Shown here: positions 1-17,441 of the stretch, one piece after another
How the letters are laid out: the number at the start of each line of letters is the position of its first letter
Position numbering within the stretch: position 1 is the first letter of the stretch
Source of the DNA: Balamuthia mandrillaris
Taxonomy: Eukaryota
Direction of reading: 5' to 3'
Length of the DNA: 64,000 nucleotides
Assembly (NCBI GenBank): GCA_031835245.2
Contig: JAVKOQ020000003.1
Coordinates: 1 to 64,000, forward strand
Program-made: the position numbers and the translations under genes
Notes under the pieces: generated by a model
Told to the model about the DNA's origin: nothing
What the model saw: the letters and a program-made list of their open reading frames with translations, nothing else
The model's database searches: none

Positions 1-3000
1 TCGATAGCGCCTTTCTATTATGGTTTTTCGGTTATTTTCTGTCGACATGTCTACAAAAATCCAAAATTTAACTCCTCAAACATTTTTTTTACAATTAAAG
101 TTCATTTTTTTATTTTTTCACAAACAGTTCACACCTTTTCCACTTGTTTTTCCCCTCTTATTTTTTTAATTGTGTTTTTTCTTTTACAAAGTCTTTTTAA
201 GTGAATTTTTTTTTTATTTTCTACCAATATTTTATGTCAACAACAATGCTACCTTCAACTCCAAAAAAAGTACATTGTTCACTTTGTTTGAATTTGATTC
301 CTTGTCCTCAATCAAATCAACTTTTTTGTAGCAAAAAATGTAAAAGGTTTGTTTATTTATTTTAAAAGTAATTTTTTTTGAATTATTATTTCTTATTCAT
401 TTTTATCTTGCTTCAAAGATCCTTTCACACTCAACAAAAACAAAAAATGATAATATCATCTGCATCTACTTCTTCTACAACTTCAACATCCACCTTGAAA
501 TCATCATCATCATCATCTTCTTCTTTTTTTTCTTCTTCTTCTTCTTCTTCTTCTTCTTCTTCTTCATTCATTCCCATTTTTTATGATGACAATGATGCTT
601 TTAATTTTGAAGAAGATAATGATAGTTTTTTTGCAACATCAGATGAAGAAGAAAAAGAGAAGGAAAGAGAGACCAATAATGATGATTTTTATTTTTCTTC
701 TTCTTCTTCTTCTTCTTTTTCTTCTTCTTTAATAGACTTGACTACAACATCAACAACTCCAACAACAACTTCTACTCTTTTCATTGATTTGGTAGATTGT
801 TCTTCTTCTTCTTCTTCTTCTTCTTCAGAAAGTGAAGCAGAAAATGAACCAACAAAAACAAAAAGAAAAGAGAAAGTACAACCACAACAACAATCATCAC
901 AAGCATTACCAACCACTACCCCATCAGCAAGAGTGTCTCGAGCTATTCGTATGCTTCCTTCTTTAATGTTAGAAAGATGGGAATACTTGAGTGCAACTTC
1001 TTCATGATGGAGTGATTCAACTTTGCGAAAACATGCCTGGGCCAGATTGATTTGGACAGCATTTTGTGATAAGTGGAAACTTGAACCTTTTCCTTTGGAT
1101 GCAGATAAACATCATCTTGGAGCATTTGTGGAATGGTTGGTGATGACTGTTGGATATGCTTTGACTTCAGCAAAAGATGTTATTGTGGCAAGTTTGTATC
1201 ATATTCATATGGAAGAAACAGGAGGAGAGCAAGTACCACAAAAGATACAAGATACTGTGAATTTGGCAGCAAAGAAGTGCAAACAACGTGCTCCATCTTG
1301 TACAAGATCAGGAAGAATGAGAGATGCTTGTTTGAGGGATGATGTGATTCAAATCATAACGATGATTCCGGATGGTAAACGCAAAAAAGCAAGAGATGCC
1401 AGTTGTTGGTTGCATAGTGTAAGCACTGGAGCTAGAGCCATCACAGCTTCCAACATTCTTCTTGGACATTTTCAGAACTTCATCATCCAAGATCCCTCTG
1501 ATCCTCACAGTCTCTGCTTCTTTTCACTTCTTCATCAAGTTACCAAAGGAAAACCAGGAGATTGGAATCACATGATTACTTTGGAAGGCTACCTTCATCC
1601 TCCTCCTCACATCAACCCCACAGCTGACTTCATCTACTGGCTTAATCTTCATCTTCAAGAAACTCATTCTTTATGCTTAGAAGAGTTTTCTGCTTGGAAT
1701 CTTTCTCCTCAACAACAAGCTACTTCTTTGTGGGGACTGAGCCCTGATGCTTTGAATGCCAGACTGAAGAAATGTGCTAGCCAAGCCAACTATCCTCCAG
1801 GCCTCTTTACTTTCCATTCTTTGAGAGCTGGTTTCATTTGCACTGCTTTGATCAAGCAGGGTTTGAATGACAGTCAACAAAGAAATGCAGTACTGGAATC
1901 TACAGCTTTTATTGCTGGTTGGCAGCCTTATGGACATTCTCAACAACGTTATGTGAAAAGCACTGCTATCAAATCCATGGTTGCTAATAGATTAGTTTCT
2001 TCCTCAGGTATTTTATTTTTTCTTTTTTTTTTAATTTGAGAAAGAAAGAAAAACTTATCTTACTTTTTATTTTCTTTTGCACATACAATCAATTAGGTGA
2101 AGCCTCTTCAACCAGTTTGATGGATCCAACTTTAGTTACCAAAGAAGTATTTCATAATTTGAAAGAACCTTTGACTTCAAAGTGGTCTTTACAAACTAAT
2201 TATGAAGCCTTTTATGACAAAGTTATGGAAAGGTTGGTGTATTTTTTACTTTATTATTATTATTATTTTGTTTATTTTGTTTATTTTTCTTGTGCTTAAC
2301 TCACTCATTTTATTCATTAATTTTTATTTATTTTAGATTCCAAAGCAGAACTGATTTATCCAAGTCAGATCATGCTAAATTATGCAAGTCTCATTTATGG
2401 CAAAAGTGCTTACATGCATGGATAGACAATCATGAAGATGAAGTTGAAGAAGAGATGAGCCAGGAAATGGAAGCATTCAAGCAAAGAAATAACTCTCAAG
2501 ATGCATCACCACCACCACCACTTAATCACATCAAAACGATTGTTGGAAGAAGACATATTGCAAGCTTGTTGGCAGGCAACTTTCAACTTTTAGATGAGCT
2601 TTTGGAAGCATTCATAGAACCTGCATTACCTCATCTACAAAACCATTCACCTTTGAAGCAAGTACCTTACAAAAAATGAAAAAATGGACCCTTTCAACTT
2701 CAAACTTCTACTCCAAGAACTCGCATCAAAACTTCCAATCATCGTCAACATCAACCTTGGAGTGATGAAGAAACAAAAGAGTTGATTCATTTGCGTCTTC
2801 ATAAAAAAGCTACTTGGGTTGAGATTGCATCAACTTTACCTCAGCAACTCAGGACAAATGTGGACTGCAAAGACAAATGGAGAAACTTAATGCTTAAGTA
2901 TGGTAGTGAAAAAGCTATTTGTCAACATTTTAATATTTGATTTTGTTTGTTTTTTATTTTCTATTTTCATGTTGAAATGTTTTTATGATATTAAGTTTTT

Positions 3001-3218
3001 TTTTATGTTGTTGTTATTTCTTTATCTTCAACATTTTTTTCTTAGTATTATAAAAATATTTTAACAAAACTGCCTTTTTATTGATATTTACAACTTTAGA
3101 AAAGATTAAAAAAAATTTCATCACAATATAAGTGTATCTATTTTAGACTTAGTTTTTTATGATATTTCTTTAAGTTACAAGGAGAGGCTAGCTTAGGTTT
3201 AAGAGTACTCGCCCCTAA
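1..3218 (+). mobile_element. YR-Myb element copy 1 (left end probably at or beyond the window start)
   Basis: YR gene followed by an AT-rich 3' region ending in TAGGTTTAAGAGTACTCGCCCCTAA, homologous to the termini at 9237 and 11317. Confidence 0.7.
234..2940 (+). pseudogene. Tyrosine recombinase-telobox Myb fusion gene (Crypton-like), 4 exons (234-346, 419-2007, 2097-2232, 2337-2940), ~813 codons with two in-frame TGA stops (1005-1007, 2677-2679)
   Basis: GT-AG introns join all exons in frame. YR catalytic motifs: STGAR (R), VTKG (K), FHSLRAG (HxxR), AGW, QRY (Y). N-terminal CxxC...FCSxxC motif. C-terminal Myb PWSDEETKEL...ATWVEIA...RTNVDCKDKWRNL (2755-2905), which is absent from the ORF track. 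Confidence 0.88.
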
Positions 3219-3320
3219 CCCTAACCCTAGGCTAGCTTAGGTTTAAGAGTACTCGCCCCTAACCCTAACCCTAAAGGCTAGCTTAGGTTTAAGAGTACTC
3301 GCCCCTAACCCTAACCCTAA
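3185..3320 (+). repeat. Three tandem 44-46 bp units: AGGCTAGCTTAGGTTTAAGAGTACTCGC + (CCCTAA)~3 telomeric repeats
   Basis: Read directly. Units start at 3185, 3229 and 3275; the 28-bp cores are identical. Confidence 0.97.
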
Positions 3321-3407
3321 CCTAGCACGGCCTTGTAGACGAGGTTGTCCGCGTGGCGTGCGAGCGCTTGAAATTTTTTTTTAGAGAGAGAGCGAAAGAG
3401 AGAGAGC

Positions 3408-4760: not shown

Positions 4761-5237
4761 GCTCTTACCTCTATTCTTGTAGCTTGTTGCTCACCTCTTG
4801 TCTCTTGTCTTGTTTCTCACCAGGGAGTTACTGCAATACTTGTGTTTGGGGATCACAGAGAGCTGTTCTGTCACACTCTTCTCTTGTCATCATGATATGC
4901 TTCAATAATAAACATTTTGCAACAAAAGAATCAAAAGAGAGAGAGAGAGAGAGAGAGAGACCTGATGAGAGCAAAAAACTGAAGGTGAGGGTTTGAATGT
5001 ATTGAACGGAATTCAAACCCCAAGTTTTTGCAGACAATCTCCTATCCGTCATGTTATCTCTTCTCTCCGTATGAACCCTGCTCTTATCTATCTTGTGATC
5101 GCATACAGAAAAATGATCAATACAGCTGTCTAAACAGGCCGTCAGAAATACAGAAAAACCTGTTTGGTGATCGGCGGGCTGTATATACAGGAAAAACCTG
5201 TCTAGACACCTGTTTATACAGCTGTATTTCACAACGG

Positions 5238-6816
5238 AGTCCCCATCCACCACTAAATCCACTCTCAACAGGCACATCAAGGGCAGACTCAACAAGCAAC
5301 TCCCTGCCACCTCTGAACGCAAATGCCTCTTGCAGCTATTCCACACAGAAGGACATCACGGGGCAGAAACCTTGTTCATCAAGATCTGGAATGAAGGCTA
5401 TTATTGGCCTACTCTTCATGCTGACTGTTCCCGCACTTGCCTACAGTGCAATGACTGCCTTAAGCACAACGTCACCAAACACGGCTTTCATCCCCTCAAA
5501 ACCATCCACGCTACTTACCCCTTCAATCACGTCGCCATCATGATGATCTGTTTGGCCCCCTTCCCACTTCTTCCAAAGGCTTCAACTATGTTCTGGTCAC
5601 CACAGACATCACTACCTGGTTCACTTCCCTCCGCCCAGTCCACACCAAGACTGCCAAAGATGTGGCCTGCACCCTCTACCAAGTTGTCTCTGATTTCGGT
5701 CTTCCTAAGATCCTTCAGTCAGACAACAGCACTGAGTTTGTCAACACGGTCATCAAAGCTCTCAAGACACTCTCTGGCTTTGAGCATCAGTTCATCTCGG
5801 CCTATCATCCTCGAGCTAATGGAGCTGCAGAAAGCCATGTCAAGCTGGCCCGCAACACCCTTAACAAGCTCATTAACAGTGATTGGTCTCACTGGCACAC
5901 CTTTCTTCCTGCTGCCCAATATGCAATCAACCAACGTGTTACTCATCGCCACAAGTCTTCCCCTTTCCAACTGTTCTTTGGTCGCCCTGCTATCACTCCA
6001 CAAGACTATTCTTCTTCCTCCTCCCAGCTTCCTATGGAAACCCTCCTCTTGGAGAACGCCAAGCAAATGCATGATATTGTCTACCTGGCATCAGCATCTT
6101 CTACTTGAAAGCACAGCTCCAACATCAAGGCTCAACATGATTCTTCTAAGTCACTCCACGAATTTTCTGCTGGCTCCAAAGTCATGCTACGCAAGCCTCC
6201 CAGGTCTCCCAAGTCTCTTCCTGAATACTCTGGCCCTTATACAGTCATCCACTGCAATCATGGTGGTGCATACCTCCTCCAGGACAGCACTGGCATTATC
6301 CTCCCGGACAAGTTCAGCCCCAACCAGCTGAAGCTTGTTGCCCCCCCAGAGGACCCTACTACCAATGACCTCCCACCTGATGAGTATGAAATAGATGAAA
6401 TCCTTGATCACAAAGGCCCAGCCAATAAGCATGAATACTTTGTTCACTGGAAAGGCTACCCACATTCTGATAACCAATGGATCCCTGCTAAAGATGTCCA
6501 TGCTCCCAAACTCATCAAACGTTATTGGGACCTCCTCAAACAATCCTCTTCACCTTCTACTTCTTCTTAAGAGGGGGAGTATGTTGGTAAAATCACCAAC
6601 ACTTATCTCAAGACTCCTCATGTTGGATCCGTCCCAGACCCTCAGCTCTCCTTTCTTTTGTATCCTCCATCCTTCCCTTCTCCCTTTTCCCTTTTCTCTT
6701 GGTGTACTTTGAAGCAATGTCAGAGATTCACTCCCGTTGTCCTTCCTCTATTCTCTTGAATACACTTCTTGTCTTGTCACTGACTCTTTTATTCTTGAGG
6801 TTGGATTCAACCAACA
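5238..6816 (+). mobile_element. Ty3/gypsy chromovirus-like LTR retrotransposon remnant: integrase plus chromodomain, PPT and 3' LTR
   Basis: HHCC zinc-binding region (H...GH...YYWP...CLQC), integrase core (LQSDNSTEF, YHPRANGAAE), GPY motif, chromodomain EYEIDEILDH...YFVHWKGY...NQW. Frameshifts and stops present. PPT GAGGGGGAG at 6571-6579. Confidence 0.93.
6582..6816 (+). repeat. 3' LTR of the gypsy element (TGTTGG...CCAACA)
   Basis: Follows the PPT, has a terminal inverted hexamer, and its last ~55 bp recur at 11850-11903. Confidence 0.75.
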
Positions 6817-9237
6817 AATGGCAACATCAGCTGCCATCACCAAGAGGATGCATTTTCTGCTCCTCCTCTTTATTTCCTTTCATTGCACCAACAAGTCACC
6901 AAAGGAATACCAAATCATTGGAATCATGTTGTTACATTTGAAGGGTATTTAACACCACCACCACCACCACCATCATCATCATCACGAGGATCATCTTCTT
7001 CACCATCACCATCATCATCATCACCACTTAGCACCACCACTGCTATGACCTCTACTGTCGCCACCACCACCACTGCCACCACATCAACAACATCAACAGC
7101 AAGCATTTGTCTTGGAGATTTTATTTACTGGTTAAACAAGCATCTATTATGCAAGCATGGTTTGGATTTGCACAAGTTTCACAACTGGCACTTAATGGAT
7201 GCACAAATACAAACATCATTATGGGGATGGTCACGTGATACTTTAAATGCCAAGTTGCAAGATCAGGCTGTTCGGGCTGGTTATCCTGAAGGATTGTTTT
7301 CCTTTCACTCCTTGCATGCTGGCTTCCTTTGCACTGCCTTGATCTTGGAGGGACTGCAGGAAGGTCACAGTTAGAACAATGTACTGGATACTACTGCCCT
7401 TATCACAGGTTGGGTACCTCATGGTAGATCCCAGCAAGTCTACATTAAGGATACATTAAAAACGTGCTATTATGGCCAATCACTTGGTCAGCAATGTTAC
7501 TACTCATCCTCATTCTTCTTCTTCTTCTTCTTCTTCTTCTTCATCATCTTCATCCTCTGTTGCAACTACCACTGCTGATTATCATCCTCCTCAACATTGC
7601 AGTTCATTACTACTCATCTGATTTTTGTTTTTTCTTTTGTTTTTTCTTTGGCTGGGCTGGCTGCCTGACCAGCATCAATAAACCACTACTACTACCACCA
7701 CCACCACTACCACTTGATGGACTGACTTGCTCTCTTTTTGGTTCTTTTCATCCTCACTCCCTTGCATGCATACAGTTATTGCTCCAGAGCTAGTTACCAA
7801 AGAAGCATTTCACAATCTATCCCCAGATGCTTTGCAACAATCCAACTGGTTTGCAGATACCAACTATCAGAGTTTTATTCATGCTGTTCGCCTACAGTTT
7901 GTTTGTGTGTTGTTTGTTTGTTTTGTTTGCATAGTATCCACCACCATCACCACTATCTATCTATCTATCTATCTATTTATCTATCCAGTCAGTCATGGCT
8001 TGTTTGTTTGCATTCAAAAATGCACCCTTAGACCTAGCGCTAGAACGCACAGGTTTATTGTGGCAGCAGCAACATTCATAGTCTAAACAATAATTGTTAT
8101 GATTGGTCTTGGTTGAAAAATTGTTCTTCTTTTGACATTCACTCACACTTTGTTTTTTGTCTCTTTTCCCTTTTTCTTTCTTTCCCTCTTTCTTTCTCTT
8201 GCTTTCTCTTTCTCTTTCTCTTGCTCTTTCTTTCTCTCTCGCTTTCTCTTTCTCTCTTCTTCTTTGTTTACACTGCTTCTTTAGGTGGTTCATGAAATGA
8301 ACAGATTTGCCAACCAAAGATCAACAAATACGATTTTATTGCTCCTTGTGGCTTGAATGTTGTACTGCTTGAGTAGAAAATCATCCAGATGAGTTTGATA
8401 AGGATGTGCTAGCTGAAGCTGCATCACCTATGAGGCCAAAAACAAATCTCCTCTTCATTGGCCCAATATTCATCGCCAGCTGTGCTGTCAACACATCTCT
8501 GGCATTCTACAAAGCTTTTTCAGTGGCTTGAATGAGCTGGTGGATGAGTTTGTAGCTCCTATACTTCCCAAGTTGGTCAACAGATCACCCATTCACAAAG
8601 CATTCCTCACCCCTCATCAAGAGCAATCATCCTCCTCCCTTGCTTCTCTTGATGATGATGATGACAAGAGTCCTGACTCAAAAAAACAAACACCATGATG
8701 ACAACGAGTTCTCAGAGCACTTCAGCAACAACAATTGTTATGCAGTTGACTCAAATATCGGAAGAATGGCCATCAGCAACGGATTGCTTGGCAGGCACCA
8801 GAAATCCGTAGACTTGTCACTTGGTGCTTGCATGATGAATGGTCTTGGTTGGAGATTGCCAAACACTTGCCTACCCAATGTCGAACCAACAATGATTGCT
8901 ATGATAAATGGCACAATCTCCTCACAGAATTCTCCAACAATCTGGACGCTTTGAAGGCCAAATACTTGGTGGCCCATGATGAGGACTTTGACAAATTGGA
9001 TGATGATGATAATAACAACACTTCCTCCCCATCTTGGATGAAGAGGAAGAGACAAAGGAGAATGATGATGATGATGATATTATGATTATATCTTGTTAGA
9101 TTATATAGGTATTTCTATACGAAAATTGAAAAAATTGCTACTTTGACCCACTTTATCCATTAGACTTATAGACTTAGAGTTTTATAGAATGGACCATAGG
9201 GAGTTGAATGCCGTAGGTTCTGAGTACCCGCCCCTAA
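6817..9237 (+). mobile_element. YR-Myb element copy 2, divergent, 5'-truncated and pseudogenised
   Basis: QVTKG..WNH..TFEGYL, DFIYWLN, LWG, YPEGLFSFHSLHAGF, TGW..HG.SQQVY and LVTKEAFHNL are all homologous to copy 1. Myb RIAWQAPE...WSWLEIAKHLPTQCRTNNDCYDKWHNL at 8780-8925. Ends in GAGTACCCGCCCCTAA. Confidence 0.85.
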
Positions 9238-9760
9238 GCCCAGCTTTTGCTACCAACTTGCCTATCAACTTCAATGAAGCTATTGCTACTGTGATAGCTA
9301 TGAAAGCTAATTTGCAAGTCATTAAATTGCACACTTGTTTCCTTCATTGCCTTCTACTACCTCACCTCCTCTTTCTAAACCAACTTCTTCCACGTCTACT
9401 GCTGAGCAATGTACATGCTATAAATGCAAGCAACAAGGTCACCTTGCATCTTTTTGCTCCAACAAGACCAACAAACTCATCTGGCCTATTTATCCAAACT
9501 ACAGGTTAAGAAGATGACAACCCTCCTAACAATGTGCATGATGATGATACGATAATGACCCTCCTGCTACTGCTATCTGCTTTGGCCCCCCTCCTGGTCC
9601 CTCTGCTCCTCTTTTTTATTTGCAGTGTGACAACGTTGACAGCTATTATGAGTACTACTATGCTATTAATGAACTGGTTGAGGACTCGCTGGACCACAAC
9701 CCCTATGCCTCACTCTAGTGAAAGAGGAAATAATGTTGAGAATTACTCTCAACATATTAA
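9238..9760 (+). mobile_element. Gag-like retroelement remnant with CCHC zinc knuckle, followed by a purine tract and a probable LTR start at 9734
   Basis: CYKCKQQGHLASFC knuckle; GAAAGAGGAAA then TGTTGAG. Confidence 0.6.
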
Positions 9761-11184
9761 TTCTGTTGCTCCTTTCCTTTCCTTTCCTTTTTGTTAACAT
9801 CCTTGACATAGATCAATTACCTGCTGCCACATCGCTAGGCTTCTCCTTTTATTCCATTGCTTCCTTTTCTCTTTCTTTTAGTTAGTTAGTTTTGATTTGT
9901 TCACATCACACTTTCCTTCTTGACACCCTTTGTTTCCTTGTTCCCTTTTTGAAAATATGTTTTGGTCCTGTCCATTCATGTTATTCACCTTTTCTAACAA
10001 ATTGTTGTTTGTTTTTACAAAGTTTTGTTTTTTTAGAACATTGTTTTTCCCTTGTTTATTCATTCAATATTAATGAAACACCTTTTAAACATTCATTTAT
10101 TCATTTATCTATCCATTTATCAGTTTCACAAACATTTTCTAGAACTATTAAGATACAATTGTATTAATTACTCAGTCATAAAACATTTTTACTCTTTGTA
10201 AATAAGCTCATTGGACAAAGCATGTTGAGTTCTACAAGAACCTTTTTTATTTTTTCAAATAAAAGCATTTTATTCCTTTTTTATTAATTATCATCGATTT
10301 TCCCTTTTTTCAATCATTTGGCTTAGAGAACGTTGAAATTTTTTCTAAGTCTGAAATTTTTGCCATGGAACCAGGGAACCAAGCAGGTTCCTTTGGTTCT
10401 GCATTTTCGCACCGGAACCAAGAGAAAGACGGGAGCCAAACATATTTAATGAGAGGAAGAAAACAAGTGTGTTTGTGAGTGTGTTGTTTCTTCGTTTGTT
10501 CGTCTGTCTGTTCTTGGTTGTGGGAAAAGTATTTATAGTTGAGAAGGCAACCAAGGAAGGAAAGGGGCTCAGGGTTGGGGAGTGACTTCTTGGTTTCTTT
10601 GTTCTTAAGTTCTAGGCTCGGGAAAGTTCCAGGGAAGGCAGGAGAAAGATCTTCGGAATGGCTCGGTGTCGACATAAAAGATCAATGATAGCTGACGTGA
10701 GATTGTCGACAGAAAAGAGAAAAGAAACAAAGAAAGAAACGAAGAAAGAGTTGGTTATGTTGGCAGTTGCCAACACTCTATCTTCCTCTTTTCTTTTTTT
10801 CCTTTCTCCTTCTTCTTCTTTCTTTTTCTTTTTCTTTTCTTTTTCTCTTTTTCTCTTTTTTCTTTCCTTTCTTTTTATTTGTATTTTTCACTTTTCTTAT
10901 TTTTCTTTTTAGCTCTTTTTTTCTCTTGTTTTTCCTTTTATTTTTCTTCTTTTTCCTCTTTTCTCTTTCTATTCTCTTCTTTCTTTTTTCCTTTTTTTTT
11001 TCTTTTTTTTTCTTTCTTTTTTTTCTTTCTTTCTTTCTTCTTGTTCTATATTTTTTTTTCTTCTTTTTCCTTTATTCACTTTTCTTTTCTTGTACCAAGG
11101 TTCAAGAAGTTCTTTCTTTTTGTCAGTTGGTCAGCAACACTTTTTTTAATTCTTCATTCTATTTGATTTGATCACACATATTGA

Positions 11185-11317
11185 ATATGTTTTTTTATGA
11201 GAAATTTGAAAAAATTGTAACTTTATACCACTTTATTTAATTGACTTGCAGACTTAGAGTTTTATAGAATGGACCATGGGGAGTTGAATGCTGTAGGTTC
11301 TGAGTACCCGCCCCTAA
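11185..11317 (+). repeat. Third YR-Myb element terminus, near-identical to 9105-9237
   Basis: Shared GAAA.TTGAAAAAATTG...GACTTAGAGTTTTATAGAATGGACCAT.GGGAGTTGAATGC.GTAGGTTCTGAGTACCCGCCCCTAA; the similarity stops exactly after CCCCTAA. Confidence 0.92.
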
Positions 11318-11849
11318 CTCGAAGCCGAATACATGAGCATCACCAAAGCAACCAAGGAAGCTATCTGGTTACAAAGACTACTAGATGATATCGGAGAAAC
11401 CCAAGAGGGACCTACCATCATTTATGAGGACAACATCAGATGCATTGAACTATCCAAGAACCCAGGAAACCACTCCAGGATGAAGCACATCAAACCAAGA
11501 CGGGTACCATCAAGCTGGAATACATGGCCAGTGACAAGATGCCCGCCGACGTTCTGACCAAATCCCTACCACAAGACAAACACGTCAAGCTAATCACGGA
11601 CATCAGAATAATACAAGAGAATTGGGATCAAGTGGGAGTGTTAATTGAGTGACCCCTCATCTCATTGCCCCACATAAGGAGGGAACAAACATGAACACAA
11701 GCACAAACACGATAGTAAGAGACCACAAAGCTATCATAAGGACCACAACACCAATCCCTTTTATACTAGCCTTATCTTCATGTTTATATTTACAGTTACA
11801 GACTACAATACATATATTTTTCTCCATATACCTATTTACTCTGCTAACA
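11318..11849 (+). mobile_element. Ty1/copia remnant: RNase H C-terminus, PPT and 3' LTR (11639-11849, TGTTA...TAACA)
   Basis: EAEYMS...KEAIWL...IYEDN...R.KHI and ADVLTK motifs; AGTGGGAG precedes TG. Confidence 0.88.
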
Positions 11850-13271
11850 GAATACACCTCTTGTCTTGTCACTGACTCTTTTATGCTGAAGGTTGGATTC
11901 AACAATATAGGATTTGAACCTAGACCCAGCATCCTGAGTTATTTATTTATGCTTCCTCCTGGTGATCAATCTCGTCCATGAGGTCATTGATGTGGTTGCA
12001 GAGCTGTAGCATGGCGCCAAACACACTGGGATAGGGGTTCAAACGTGTGCGGGGGCGTGGCATCTTCTGCACAAACCACCGTGCCAGGTCAACCCACCTC
12101 TCTGAGGGTTTGTTGGGGGTGCTGTTATAGTAGTCTTGCCACACCATGGTCCTCAGATACCGATGGCATTGCACCGTGCCAGGGCAGGGCAGGGTGTTGG
12201 GGGCTTCCTCCACCATCCACCGCACAACATCTAGGTGGAGTCGGCACACAGCCTTGTCCAGTGTGGATTCAGTTAGGGGCATGTGGCATTCAATGTTGAG
12301 GTAGTGCAGTAGCTCCACGTTGCCACTCCGGACAGCCTTGTGCAGGCACTTAGGGTGATGCTGGTTCCACATCGACGGGTCGATGTGGGCCGGCTCGCCC
12401 AGCCGCACCTCCTCCCTCAGCCAGCGCACCACGTCGAGGCGGCCCAATGGAAGGATTGGGTCCAACACCAGGCTCATCCAATCAAGGTCGTCGGGCTGAT
12501 CCCGCATCCACCCGTTGTACCACTTCAGGACGGCCAGTGGGTCGCCCCCCTGGCACGCACTGTGGGTCATGCGAGCCACCATGCTCGCCATGCTCATATG
12601 CAACCCCCTGTGGTTGATCAAGAACAGCCACTCCAGGATGTGGAGGCGGCTGCTCGAGGCCGCTACGTGCACCATCTCCCAGATGCAGTCGCGGAGGTTT
12701 ATCGCCGTGATCCCACCCTCGTGCAAGCTGTCTTCCAGGAGGGCGCTCCATGTCATGCGGAGGAGGTCCAGGTCCCCCCGATCCACGGCCGCGAGGCACG
12801 CCTCGCTGACGTTCCACGGGCATGGCGGGCGCGGGGTGCAGGCGTCCTCCCCCTTCAACCAGCGGAACACCGGGAAGAAGCCCTCCCAGCCTGCCCGTTC
12901 TGCCGTGCTGCGCCGGATGACGGCGTTCACAACGTATGTGCCAAAGACATGATCATTCCCCCAGGGGTTATCGGCCTTGTCCTTCCACCCCTGGTTGCGG
13001 TAGAGGTCCCTCACAGCCTCGAGGTGCCAGTCCGCCGCGGCCACCATCCCCTCAACGGAGGGGATGAGCAGGGCGCCCACCATCATGGCGCCGTGGAGGG
13101 AGTGGTCGGAGCGGAAGGCGGGATTCTGACCAAACTTCTGGAACGTCCAGACTAGCAGCTCCTTGGAGCGGGACACGGCGAGCGCGTCGAGTCTTCTCAC
13201 GTGTGGCCGCCTGCTCTCATCAAGCAGGAGGATCTCGCGCCAGAGCCTGCAGGTGCAGGCCGCCAGCGCGG

Positions 13272-16200
13272 GCGAATCGGGTAAACGTCCCACCCCACAA
13301 CGCTAAAAGTCCCACCCCTTCGGTAAACGTCCCACCCCTCAGGTAATTTACCCACCCTAATATGTATTTATAACAACCTATTATTTTTGTGCTATTTTGC
13401 CACCAAAGCGTGCGCTGGCCATTTTTTTAGAGAGTGGAGAAAAGGGATCAGAAAAATCAAAAATTTATTTTTTAGGGGGCTTTTTTTTTTCGTTTTGTTC
13501 TTTTGGCCAGTCTTTTCTTTGTAACTGTTCCCTTTTCTTCGTTCTGTTCTTTTTTTTGAGGAGAGAGGAGCTTCACGACCTGTGTTTTCTGGTACCGTGG
13601 GTTGGGCTTCAGTTGTCGTTTTGGAGTGAGAGGCTTCCTTTTGTCCACTCGGGGATCCTGGTAGTTCACCACGGGTGCGACGCCATAGATCTCTTCCGTT
13701 TTACAGTTCTTTTGCCATTGAGAGGTACGCTTTGCTTTGCACTCTTCAAAAATGACAAAAATCAACTTCAGAAAAAGAATCTGCTTGATACAAAAAGTGA
13801 CAATCATACCACTTTGCGTTTTTGTTTTTTGATTTTGTTGTTTTTTTGGTGCAGCCGCCGCCACCGCCGCTGCCTTTTTCTTTGTTGTTTCAGGTTTTGT
13901 TAAATTTGATAGAAAGGTACGTTCGGTTTCTGGTGTTTGTGTGAGGTGTTAGCTAAAAGTAGGAAAGGAGGGAGAGATTTTGTTTAAAAAAAAGAGAAAC
14001 TAACTTAATTCAAGCAAACATTCTTCTGTGAGTCGCAGGTTGGTTGCTACTTTCGGCCTCTTTGTTGTATTGCGCGGCCTCCCAGGTGATGACTACCCTG
14101 TAGCATATGCGATTGCTTGTTCTGCTTCTTCCTTGCTAGAGTACTCGATTTTTGGCTCCACTGGATGTTGATGCTTTGTTCCTTGATTTTTGTTTGCATT
14201 CAGTTTGTCTTTCTCCTTTTCCTTCTCCTCCTCCTACTTCTCCTCCTCCTCCTCCTTTTCCTCCTCCTCCTTGTTGTGTTGTTCTCCTTCAGAAGTTTCT
14301 TCCTCGAGATCTCTGCCATCATCCTCACCAAGTTCATCCATCGATGGCTCCTCCAACAGTAGCAGGGTCGGCCTTTCCTCTTCCTGTTCATGGCCCTCCT
14401 CTCCTTCCTCATCTTCATCATCAAGGGTAACAGGCGCTACACGTTGCTCCAGCAAGTCAGCATCATCTGCTTCAACAATCTCGTCTTCAACCATTCTTGC
14501 CACTTTTGAGGTGCTGCTGTTGGTGCGTCTTGTTTGTCTTTTCAGTCCAAGCTCTAAAAGGTTCTGATCTGAAAATGTTTTCTGTAGATGAGCAGCAAGT
14601 CCAAAAACATGTTTGCACCTCCTACCATAATACCGAAAGTAAGGACAGGTGCATGAAGGCGATTCTATACTCACATCGTACTCGTTCCATTTGAAAACGC
14701 CGTCAGCAAGCTCCACAAAATGTGCGTTCAATCCTTCTCCTTCTGCCTCTTTTTCCTCTCTGTCATTGTTGTCATCATCGCTATTGCTGTCTTTCTCTGT
14801 TTCTGCTTTTTTTTTTTTTCTGTTTCTCACTCTGTTGGTGCTGTGCCAGCCGCAATCCCTCTTGATATCTCCTCCACAGCCGGCGAACACCACGGCTTGG
14901 GCGTTGCTGTTGCACGTTGATGCGGTTGAGCTCTACATTGTAGCGCCGAAACACATTGTCTGCTAACGTTAAGACCAAGTTGTGGTCCCCTTTGGTGCCC
15001 TTGCAGTGGAAATCACGGAGAACACTCCGAAAGATAGTCTCTGTTGCATTGTTGGTATTCCACAAGCCCTCTCGGTGCCCCGGACGACCAATGCTTTTCC
15101 ACGTTGATGCCCATGGAGGAGAAAGCCAGTTCTTGTCAAAGTACTTCCAGAAACGGGTAATCCTCTTTTTTTGGCAATAGTTCTGCAACACCTTGGTTGC
15201 TTCTTCCTCTGCTTCTTCTGTCATGGCGTGTTGCAGTCTTTTTAATAAACCCAACACACTTCCATCATCCTTCCCTTGTTGTTTGGTATTATTGTTAGTT
15301 TCTACTTGTATGAACAATGAGAGCAAGAGAGCAGATGCATGCATGAAAGAGAGAACAAACCATACTGTGCAACTTTTTTTCTCCACAGTTGTTGCGTATG
15401 AAAGTCGCACAACAACACCTGAAAGCCAGCGCTTGTCGCCCCGTTGCGCTCCACCTTGTCTTTGTCGATCATTACAAAGGGTTGCCACGTAGTGTTCGGG
15501 GAGTAGATCGTTGTGGTCTGTGTCTCAAAAAAGTGACGAACGGACGAAAGAAAAAAGCGCACAACTGCAGCTCGTTCCTTGCTAGCAACAGCGAAGGCAA
15601 CAGGCCAGCTCCGTCCCAAGTCATCTTGCACCACCAGTGCCCAAACAGGATGATGTGACTTGGATAGCTTGTAGATGCTGTCCAGGCCGACTACATCCTT
15701 ACCCCATCGCTGAAGCACAGTGACTGCATAAGGCGCGATCAGAAAAATCATCCATGGCCGATGGGCTGCAGTGCGATCAAGGATGTACGTTTCACGGCTC
15801 TCCAAAGGTGGAAAAAGGATAGTGGAAGCCAGCTCGGGTCGATTCAAGGCCTCTTGGAGGGCTTCTGCTCTGGTTTGGCCTTTCTTGCCGATTCGCAGTT
15901 TTTTCCTTCCGTTGTGGATTACGGTGGCAATCTCCTGCACAGTTGGTACATCACGAGCATCCTTGACCAGCTCGCAAGCGCCCCCCAGCAACAGTTGTTG
16001 CAGCTCATGCGCCGTCATTGCTCCTCCCCTCCCTTTCATCCCGTCTTCTTTTGCTCCTTGCCCATCCATCTGGCGGAGCCACTGTCGAAGCGCAGGCGTC
16101 ATAGGCATTGCAGAAGGCGCACAAAACCCAGGTCCGTGGCTTTGGGCTTCCTTCTGGATGTAGATGTAGGCAGTGTTTAGCTCGTCTCTAAACACCACCC

Positions 16201-16989
16201 AACGGCTTTGCACTCCACAGTCCTTTATTTTTTTGTTTTTCTTTCTGCTTGGAGGAGCACAGGCAAAGCCGCCAGAGCAGTGAAGATTCTCGCTGAGTGC
16301 AACCTCAAGGACTCCATTCTTCGCCTTCTTGACTGTTGGTGCCACCTACACTTTCACTCCTTCAAGGGTGGTGCGAGGATTACTAAGCACCTTCACTCCT
16401 GTTCGCTTTGTAAGCCCACGAGTTGATCTCCATTGGACTCGATAGAAGGTCGGAGCATCCTCTCCTCCATTGTACAACCTTGAAAGCTGCTGCAATGGAA
16501 CTGTTCTTTCAAAAATCCAACCGTAAATCTCTGCAAATCTTTTTTTCTTCTCTTCCATAATGAAAAAAAAAAAAGGAAAAAACAAAAACAAAAGCCAAAC
16601 AAACAAAATAGGTGTGTGATGGTCGTGTTGTGTCACTGTTTCTGGTTAAAAGAAAAAAGAAAGAGAAGACCTTGTCACACAACGCAAGAAAAAATAACGG
16701 TAACTTTAAAAAAAAAAGGCGGGAACAAAAAGAAAAGTATGTTGGGCAAGAATGGTGGGAAAAATAACGGTTATGACCAAGGATACAGCATGCCTTCAAT
16801 TCCTGACAGTTTTCTTTTACAACGGTTATTCCTCTCTGTGACAAAGAAACACAGTAGCAATGTAACGATAAGGGGATTACTCATAATTCATGTCACCCTA
16901 ATAGGTTGGGACTTTTACCTGAGGGGTGGAATTTTTATCGGTGGGGTGGGAAGTTTATGGTCGTGGGGTGGGATATCTACCATTTTTGC
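13272..16989 (-). mobile_element. Mutator-like (MULE) DNA transposon, full length, with degenerate transposase
   Basis: ~90-bp imperfect TIRs (13272-13362 and ~16899-16989); 9-bp TSD CCAGCGCGG at 13263-13271 and 16990-16998. Confidence 0.93.
14005..16558 (-). pseudogene. MULE DDE transposase with SWIM zinc finger
   Basis: GLDSIYKL, MIDKD, LLCDFH, TNNATE motifs; SWIM CTC...CKH; AT-hook-like PGRPR. In-frame stop at 16346-16348 and a frameshift in a poly-A run near 14810. Ends approximate. Confidence 0.85.
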
Positions 16990-17441
16990 CCAGCGCGGCC
17001 CACCGTTCCGACAGGGACTTGCACAGGATGTGGTACCACAGCTCGTTCGGCAGCAGCGACAACGGACACCAGGGATCTTCCATGTCTAAACCTGTAAGCC
17101 CAGGAGTAGACAAAACCCAAACACGTCTCTCTATTCTAAACCGCTGGATGTCTTTCTTTGCTTTTTTTTTTTTAATGAAAGCCAAAATAGCAAAATGTCA
17201 AGGTTTGCCCTCAGCCCGAGCCCCCTGGCAATCACCTGCTCGGAAAAGAGGCGGATCAGGGCCTCATTGACGCTCAACCGCCGCGAGCAGTTCCGGGTGC
17301 ACATGCTGCTCTCTGTGACTGTACGCCACGGTGCGACTGGCTTGTCCATCCATATGTGTTTGGTCAACAGTCCCCTCGTTTTTTGAAAAAAAAAAAAAAA
17401 CAGAGACAATCAAAACCATTTTGAGTTGTGATACAAAATGT

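Follow-up and report, generated by a model that had tools for sequence, protein, structure and literature searches.

A broken tyrosine recombinase-Myb gene of Balamuthia mandrillaris belongs to a family of probable telomere-repeat-inserting DNA transposons

The window analysed here, a 64 kb stretch of Balamuthia mandrillaris DNA, contains near its left edge a gene of four exons and three GT-AG introns that runs from an ATG at 234 to a TGA at 2940 and specifies, in 814 codons including the terminal stop, a tyrosine recombinase (YR) joined to a C-terminal Myb domain (Table 1). An initial annotation, made from the sequence alone, had proposed a spliced gene of about 813 codons, and the reconstruction agrees: NCBI gene model P0020 is contained, residue for residue, in the window translation, starting at codon 338, which supports introns 2 and 3. 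That annotation had also taken the gene as open, missing two in-frame TGA codons (1005-1007 and 2677-2679). Because of them no full-length protein can be made from the window copy, which is broken.

Table 1. Features of the YR-Myb locus and of related copies within the window
Feature	Position	Strand	Remarks
Exon 1	234..346	+	ATG and CxxC-x(12)-FCSxxC zinc-finger-like motif
Intron 1	347..418	+	72 nt, GT-AG; sole frame-keeping GT-AG pair among those tried
Exon 2	419..2007	+	Ser/Thr/acidic low-complexity linker, then Cre-like core-binding and catalytic YR domain (~940-2007)
Premature TGA, codon 234	1005..1007	+	Just before the YR; Arg in sister copies, likely CGA>TGA
Intron 2	2008..2096	+	89 nt, GT-AG; junction identical in NCBI model P0020
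Exon 3	2097..2232	+	End of YR C-terminal extension and start of helical middle domain
Intron 3	2233..2336	+	104 nt, GT-AG; junction identical in NCBI model P0020
Exon 4	2337..2940	+	Four-helix middle domain, basic linker, Myb, terminal TGA
Premature TGA, codon 727	2677..2679	+	Before the Myb, which it cuts off; Arg in 9 of 15 listed cluster members
Single Myb domain	2752..2889	+	Pfam PF00249, E 4e-08; C-terminal, ends RTNVDCKDKWRNL
Three tandem 44-46 bp units	3185..3326	.	Each ~27 bp of element end and ~3 CCCTAA; tracts 3213-3229, 3257-3274, 3303-3322
Conserved element end	3185..3218	-	G-strand: TTAGGG, 6 nt, AC, inverted degenerate telomere arm; putative YR-site-like geometry
Older paralogous YR-Myb copy (second in window)	6812..9237 (approx.)	+	5' part missing beside LTR; several stops
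Third element end	11180..11317	+	85% to 9100-9237; joined to copia-like fragment

Both internal TGA sites are occupied by arginine in the sister models that span them. At the second site, nine of the 15 listed members of the window gene's cluster have Arg, three end there, two splice around it and one ends earlier; P0013, P0014 and P0020 share the premature stop of the window copy. The observed-to-expected CpG ratio is 0.17 in the window copy, 0.18 in the second copy and 0.34 in a gypsy fragment, as against 0.60-0.84 in ten host coding stretches. The low values in both copies suggest CGA>TGA decay after methylation as the cause of the stops; in the window copy, silencing by CpG methylation was then likely followed by loss of function through such changes. 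A reading of TGA as a sense codon was considered and rejected, given the Arg at both sites in sister copies and a CpG depletion that fits CGA>TGA.

The full catalytic set claimed for the recombinase (R, K, HxxR, W, Y) can be located in the window copy, at R 1434, K 1545, H 1815, R 1824, W 1920 and Y 1950. Across 118 full-length YR domains, counted after removal of 15 near-duplicate proteins (14 from Balamuthia), R, K, R, W and Y are present without exception and H in 117. Cre is the top Foldseek match (E 2e-05) for the AlphaFold model of a sister protein, P0001, and VIA-align superposes the two with Z 17.4 over 285 aligned residues (rmsd 7.8), covering both the core-binding and the catalytic domain; the family YR is accordingly modelled as a Cre-like tyrosine recombinase with a core-binding plus catalytic fold. 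Pfam PF00589 is detected in 7 of 12 family YR domains (best E 3.9e-11); the window YR itself matches nothing in Pfam or PHROGs, Phage_integrase being found in relatives only. Atlas neighbours are eukaryotic Phage_integrase/ALOG clusters at 0.90-0.92, to be taken as a lead only, and profile searches for distant named YRs returned family members, with no named Crypton or DIRS sequence among the matches. GCR1_C is an accessory domain of CryptonF and DUF3504 of CryptonA; neither of them, nor NDC10_II, appeared in the 74 family proteins and 12 YR domains scanned against Pfam.

Two further parts complete the protein. The N-terminal CxxC...FCSxxC finger, overlooked at first, also lies upstream of the YR in six relatives (L001, L002, L003, P0027, P0069, P0132), and the exon 1 region gives weak Pfam zf-HIT and treble-clef matches (E 0.02-0.04). 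Between YR and Myb is a four-helix domain for which Foldseek gave nothing at E 0.001 or better; the modelled domain of P0021 (residues 58-171) has many RNase III-like bundle matches at Z 6-7, values within the range of common helical arrangements.

The telomere repeat of Balamuthia is given as TTAGGG (bioRxiv 10.1101/2025.02.25.640156). Tandem CCCTAA in the window is confined to 3213-3320, beginning 273 bp after the stop, where a distance of about 270 bp had been reported; CCCTAACCCTAA has five matches in the window, all of them within this interval, and none in 100 shuffles. Adjoining CCCTAA is a conserved end motif that the initial annotation had passed over, with five matches in the window against none expected, which recurs at 9221 and 11301. 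The reading frames of NCBI models P0017, P0018 and P0019 cross the same end, two of them running on into PNPNP, the translation of (CCCTAA)3. Within the triplicated end the inner junctions differ, T-TAGGG in one case and T-TTTAGGG in the other after an identical 27 bp, as if the end had broken twice at one spot with telomere repeats added each time. Window positions 1-233 contain neither an upstream end nor CCCTAA, and the upstream end of this copy may lie outside the window. Judged by its orientation, the end would suit a chromosome terminus lying left of position 1, with a CpG-poor, transposon-rich stretch reaching to about 12 kb.

The window holds two further traces of the element, together with other transposons. 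The second YR-Myb copy, also unremarked at first, has HSLH in place of HSLR and finishes, like the first, in the end motif, here accompanied by one CCCTAA. It abuts the 3' part of a chromodomain-bearing gypsy element (5171-6811; integrase, chromo) with a polypurine tract at ~6570 and an LTR at ~6582-6811, 54 bp of whose end occur again at 11850-11903. A gag-like zinc-knuckle fragment (9400-9460) directly follows element end 2 and a copia-like RNase H fragment (11320-11640) directly follows element end 3, both recognised by eye. A MULE transposon occupies 13266-16996, with MULE and SWIM Pfam matches at 14234-16345. Its inverted repeats span 13266-13362 and 16899-16996 (74%), and one CCCTAA lies in either repeat region (13355, 16896).

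The closest protein match to the window gene is likewise from Balamuthia mandrillaris (93%), and its 90% cluster comprises 17 Balamuthia gene models, of which 15 are listed, on 16 contigs. A second subfamily stands at 52% identity (P0002, P0027), and the wider family numbers 329 protein cluster representatives at E 0.001 or better, 150 of them listed. The 27 proteins whose sources were looked up derive from Balamuthia (2), Monocercomonoides exilis (3) and metagenome or run assemblies (22); Monocercomonoides has several divergent subfamilies (P0011, P0047 and P0087, the last named with a 5-member cluster). A single-copy host gene had been put forward as the finding that would speak against a mobile element; the 17 gene models and their divergent relatives show a multicopy family instead. 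Models P0018 and P0025, named Rap1 GAP and DEAD-box helicase, are element ORFs fused to neighbouring host genes and are probably mis-annotations. A viral origin was also considered and rejected: 28 pattern matches in viral_contigs yielded none that could be confirmed, and the end-motif pattern had no match there.

Relatives were also sought in metagenomes, where 34 loci comprised 30 true relatives and 4 weak matches. Perfect telomere-type tracts of at least two units occur at 23 of the 30 true loci, at none of the 4 weak matches and in 1 of 1700 shuffles, which bears out the suggested association of copies with telomere repeats. At 20 of the 30, reading frames are open only if TAA and TAG are read as Gln (code 6), and these loci carry TTGGGG, a ciliate telomere repeat (PMC13085455); their host is likely a ciliate. 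The code-6 YRs form one clade in a quick tree, so these 20 loci count as one group and the switch from TTAGGG to TTGGGG as one event. Beyond that group a perfect tract is found in four of eight independent locus sets (L002/3, L004/5, L007, L027), in one case 7.7 kb away; of the remaining sets L001 has a degenerate tract, and L006, L010 and L028 have none. The tract of L014 is degenerate as well.

The code-6 loci reveal bounded units. Seven are complete, of three types and 3066-3192 bp, with (TTGGGG)n on both sides; each has one YR ORF, and their other ORFs of at least 250 aa measure 254-337 aa, those of L013 overlapping low-complexity DNA. Altogether 13 unit types follow one another in changing order (unit A is succeeded by B, C or D, and the neighbours of unit G differ on both sides), an order that short-read assemblies could mimic by mis-joining units at common ends or tracts. 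Under TTAGGG, the loci L003 and L002 (99% overlap) together read flank, (TTAGGG)3, end, ORF, 1.2 kb, and at least 19 TTAGGG units up to the contig end. L004 (1-15046) has an intact 1119-codon YR-Myb ORF 7.7 kb from terminal (TTAGGG)n, with no tract in the 5.4 kb upstream, and is possibly a much larger element. A tRNA gene at 3599-3671 of L007, 250 bp past (CCCTAA)3, is the sole Rfam match among five loci scanned.

Alignment of 17 ends on the G-strand reveals a common order of telomere unit, 6 nt and AC (offset in L007), followed in many by an inverted degenerate telomere arm; the AC at positions 7-8 inside the end is conserved in both repeat groups. The inverted-arm score is 39/72 in the TTAGGG group (shuffle maximum 35) and 51/132 in the TTGGGG group (shuffle maximum 50), reached in each case by none of 5000 shuffles, a test that overstates independence because the ends are related; in several code-6 ends the signal is weak. 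A usual YR site consists of inverted arms of 11-13 bp around 6-8 bp (PMC3212892). The tract follows the ORF, on the C-strand, in Balamuthia and L007, and the same end precedes the ORF in L001, L003, L027 and the code-6 units, so that the gene is inverted relative to the end in some lineages. Both element ends abut a telomere unit, which makes the exact crossover position ambiguous inside the repeat tract.

The single C-terminal Myb first noted in the window copy is confirmed by its Pfam match (Table 1). Its supposed telobox signature, (V)DLKDKWRN, is present in part: KDKWRN is there, but the actual sequence is VDCKDKWRN, with C in place of the telobox L. TRF1 reads bases through K421, D422, R425 and R380 (PMC2377444). 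Equivalents of the first three lie at the same spacing in helix 3 of the window Myb (K 2869, D 2872, R 2881), and the N-arm arginine, His in the window copy, is Arg in 8 of the 9 cluster members that have a Myb, standing in most sister copies three residues ahead of the first Trp. A Myb is present in 84 of 118 family proteins, and in 56 of the 58 that continue for 230 aa or more beyond the YR. Recognition helices vary across the family: the K-D-x-x-R triad is found in 26 of the 84 Mybs and missing from 58, L004, L007 and L027 are linked to TTAGGG yet have no triad, and the TTGGGG-flanked units, from one clade, have helices of R-(E/D)-R-A-R type. Three proteins (P0008, P0010, P0045) have two Mybs each, and three of the 74 scanned against Pfam (P0103, P0106, P0123) have a C-terminal chromodomain with or in place of a recognisable Myb.

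Neither sequence scores nor fold scores separate telobox domains from c-Myb or SNAPc repeats. Single-domain profiles gave 29.6 bits for TRF1, 28.0 for TRF2 and 27.7 for c-Myb R3, margins too small to count; Foldseek placed NgTRF1, TRF2 and TRF1 first, but at E 0.6-1.2; VIA gave Z 7.0 for TRF1 against 6.5 for SNAPc and R2R3; and a single-sequence search ranked multi-repeat Mybs above telobox proteins. Readout residues are in any case no proof of telomere binding by themselves, since restoring the triad in TERB1 did not regain binding (PMC8867601). The proposal that the Myb recognises telomere repeats thus stands in part: with the TRF1 triad kept and TRF structures first among its matches, binding by the Balamuthia domain is plausible from its residues, but the scores tie with those of other Mybs. 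Because just 26 of 84 Mybs have the triad and three TTAGGG-linked relatives are without it, the Myb is not established as the targeting part of the protein.

Taken together, the YR-Myb gene of the window is a broken member of a multicopy family which, in our judgement, probably consists of small DNA transposons without reverse transcriptase (RT) that insert into host telomere repeats. The multicopy family, the bounded units and the tracts bear out the initial picture of a Crypton-like, RT-less YR element tied to telomere repeats. Counterpoints are that the sequences analysed revealed no empty site, circle or new insertion, and that window copies 2 and 3 close with a single CCCTAA, beyond which lies retrotransposon DNA.

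The last point suits another interpretation, that the element carries two or three telomere repeats as its own terminal sequence, bound by Myb and YR for synapsis, with no targeting of host telomeres. Ciliate TBE elements do carry telomere repeats in this way, and a tract of about three units stands beside the conserved end in the window, P0018, P0019, L003, L007 and L027; the single unit of copies 2 and 3 beside non-telomeric DNA, the degenerate tracts of L001 and L014 and the internal position of the window tract agree with it too. We nevertheless consider it unlikely, since identical or similar units have tracts of varying length (14-47 bp), one tract rather than two separates neighbouring units, L002 runs into at least 19 repeats at its contig end, and the tracts of code-6 loci are of TTGGGG type.

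Rather unlikely, too, is a passive origin, in which a subtelomeric host gene family or a long-dead element was moved by chromosome-end exchange and the tracts are scars of telomerase healing. It would account for the premature stop shared by several Balamuthia models, for the three 44-46 bp units, which look as though the end had broken 27 bp inward and then gained repeats, and for the joining of AT-rich flanks to TTGGGG at TA in code-6 loci. It sits poorly with sharp conserved ends common to code-6 loci and Balamuthia, with 13 unit types in changing order in one locus group, with catalytic residues invariant in 118 diverse members, and with a CpG depletion like that of the neighbouring gypsy fragment and unlike that of host genes. 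That the protein is a domesticated telomere-maintenance recombinase (acting, for example, in telomere resolution or extension via t-circles) with the Myb as a TRF-like anchor is very improbable, for although the TRF1 readout residues are kept in Balamuthia and telobox structures come first among Myb matches, broken copies are numerous, single genomes have several divergent subfamilies (Monocercomonoides P0011, P0047, P0087), known hosts are patchy and recognition helices vary.

If the family does insert into host telomere repeats, as we prefer, the recombinase would release it as a circle by recombining the telomere-unit direct repeats at the two ends of the element, as proposed for Cryptons, and the circle would then enter a (TTAGGG)n or (TTGGGG)n tract, a few repeats away from its inner border. 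YR monomers would bind the end motif as a loxP-like site, in which 6-8 bp separate a telomere arm from an inverted degenerate telomere arm. The Myb could serve as a tether and so increase occupancy of telomere repeats, like the arm-binding domains of phage integrases; such a tether probably helps without being essential. YR insertion into telomere repeats has precedents in TATE elements (PMC6681497) and nimaviruses (PMC10871703), and the YR core may set the target alone, since these recombinases reach telomere repeats and the available text of both papers names no Myb. The Balamuthia subfamily with the shared stop would have been duplicated after the stop arose, either in trans or by subtelomeric exchange.

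A bolder reading, which we offer tentatively and rate below even chances, is that of an as yet unnamed superfamily of eukaryotic DNA transposons in Amoebozoa, Metamonada and ciliate-code protists, in which a captured TRF-like Myb homes a Cre-like recombinase to the host telomere repeat, the recognition helix having been re-tuned as TTAGGG gave way to TTGGGG, and which forms tandem arrays at chromosome ends as a DNA-based counterpart of TRAS/SART or HeT-A. The change of helix with TTGGGG is a single event, because the TTGGGG-flanked YRs form one clade.

Eukaryotic DNA transposons with specific targets are rare, and the Crypton mechanism, with its circle and crossover site, is still a model. Intact members of the family are compact (~3.1 kb) and sharply bounded, their target sequence is known and they have a loxP-like end motif, which makes eukaryotic YR transposition directly testable in vitro. 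The family also provides a natural test of how a reader of telomere repeats adjusts when the host repeat is altered, and it represents a source of turnover at protist subtelomeres; a Cre-like integrase directed to telomere repeats is of possible interest as a tool for site-specific integration.

We found no description of a YR-Myb element in the literature searched, a search with Repbase Reports, most subscription papers and supplements outside its scope; the ALOG paper, in its available text, uses 'Myb' for host transcription factors only (PMC3537659). Tec, Sardine and Thon elements, as described in the text available, combine a YR with a DDE transposase and terminal inverted repeats (TIRs) (PMC3464196), unlike the units here. 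Endogenous nimaviruses share YR-associated insertion into telomere repeats, concatemers and a zinc-finger plus YR architecture, but they are viral genomes hundreds of kb long, whose YR is of the arm-binding type and which have, in the text available, no Myb (PMC10871703). TATE elements of Leishmania likewise encode a YR and occur clustered in tandem within telomere hexamer repeats, always at one position of the hexamer, but they are classed with DIRS-like retroelements, and 'Myb' does not occur in the available text (PMC6681497). The hallmark of DIRS, Ngaro, VIPER and TATE, an RT-RNaseH with split or inverted LTR-like repeats, is lacking in the complete units, which at 3.1-3.2 kb have one conserved ORF and no RT-sized second ORF.

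Cre/loxP is the best structural match and resembles the family in its end motif of inverted ~12 bp arms and a 6-8 bp spacer; identity to Cre is ~14%, the family adds finger, helical domain and Myb, and recombination here is predicted. The telobox proteins TRF1, TRF2 and NgTRF1 share the single C-terminal Myb with K-D-x-W-R in helix 3, and most family members differ from them by C for L in the (V)xLKD motif. Cryptons differ in their hosts, those here being amoebozoan, oxymonad and code-6 protists, and in the C-terminal Myb, a word absent from the available text of the Crypton paper (PMC3212892). The likeness to them, which rests on architecture and unit structure rather than on a YR tree with named Cryptons, lies in a single YR gene (with introns in the window copy), no RT, no TIRs and a proposed circle (PMC3212892), putatively in short terminal direct repeats, which measure 4-6 bp in Cryptons and for which the telomere unit is the candidate here, and, with the microsatellite-targeting CryptonV (PMC8869645), in the probable use of simple repeats as target.
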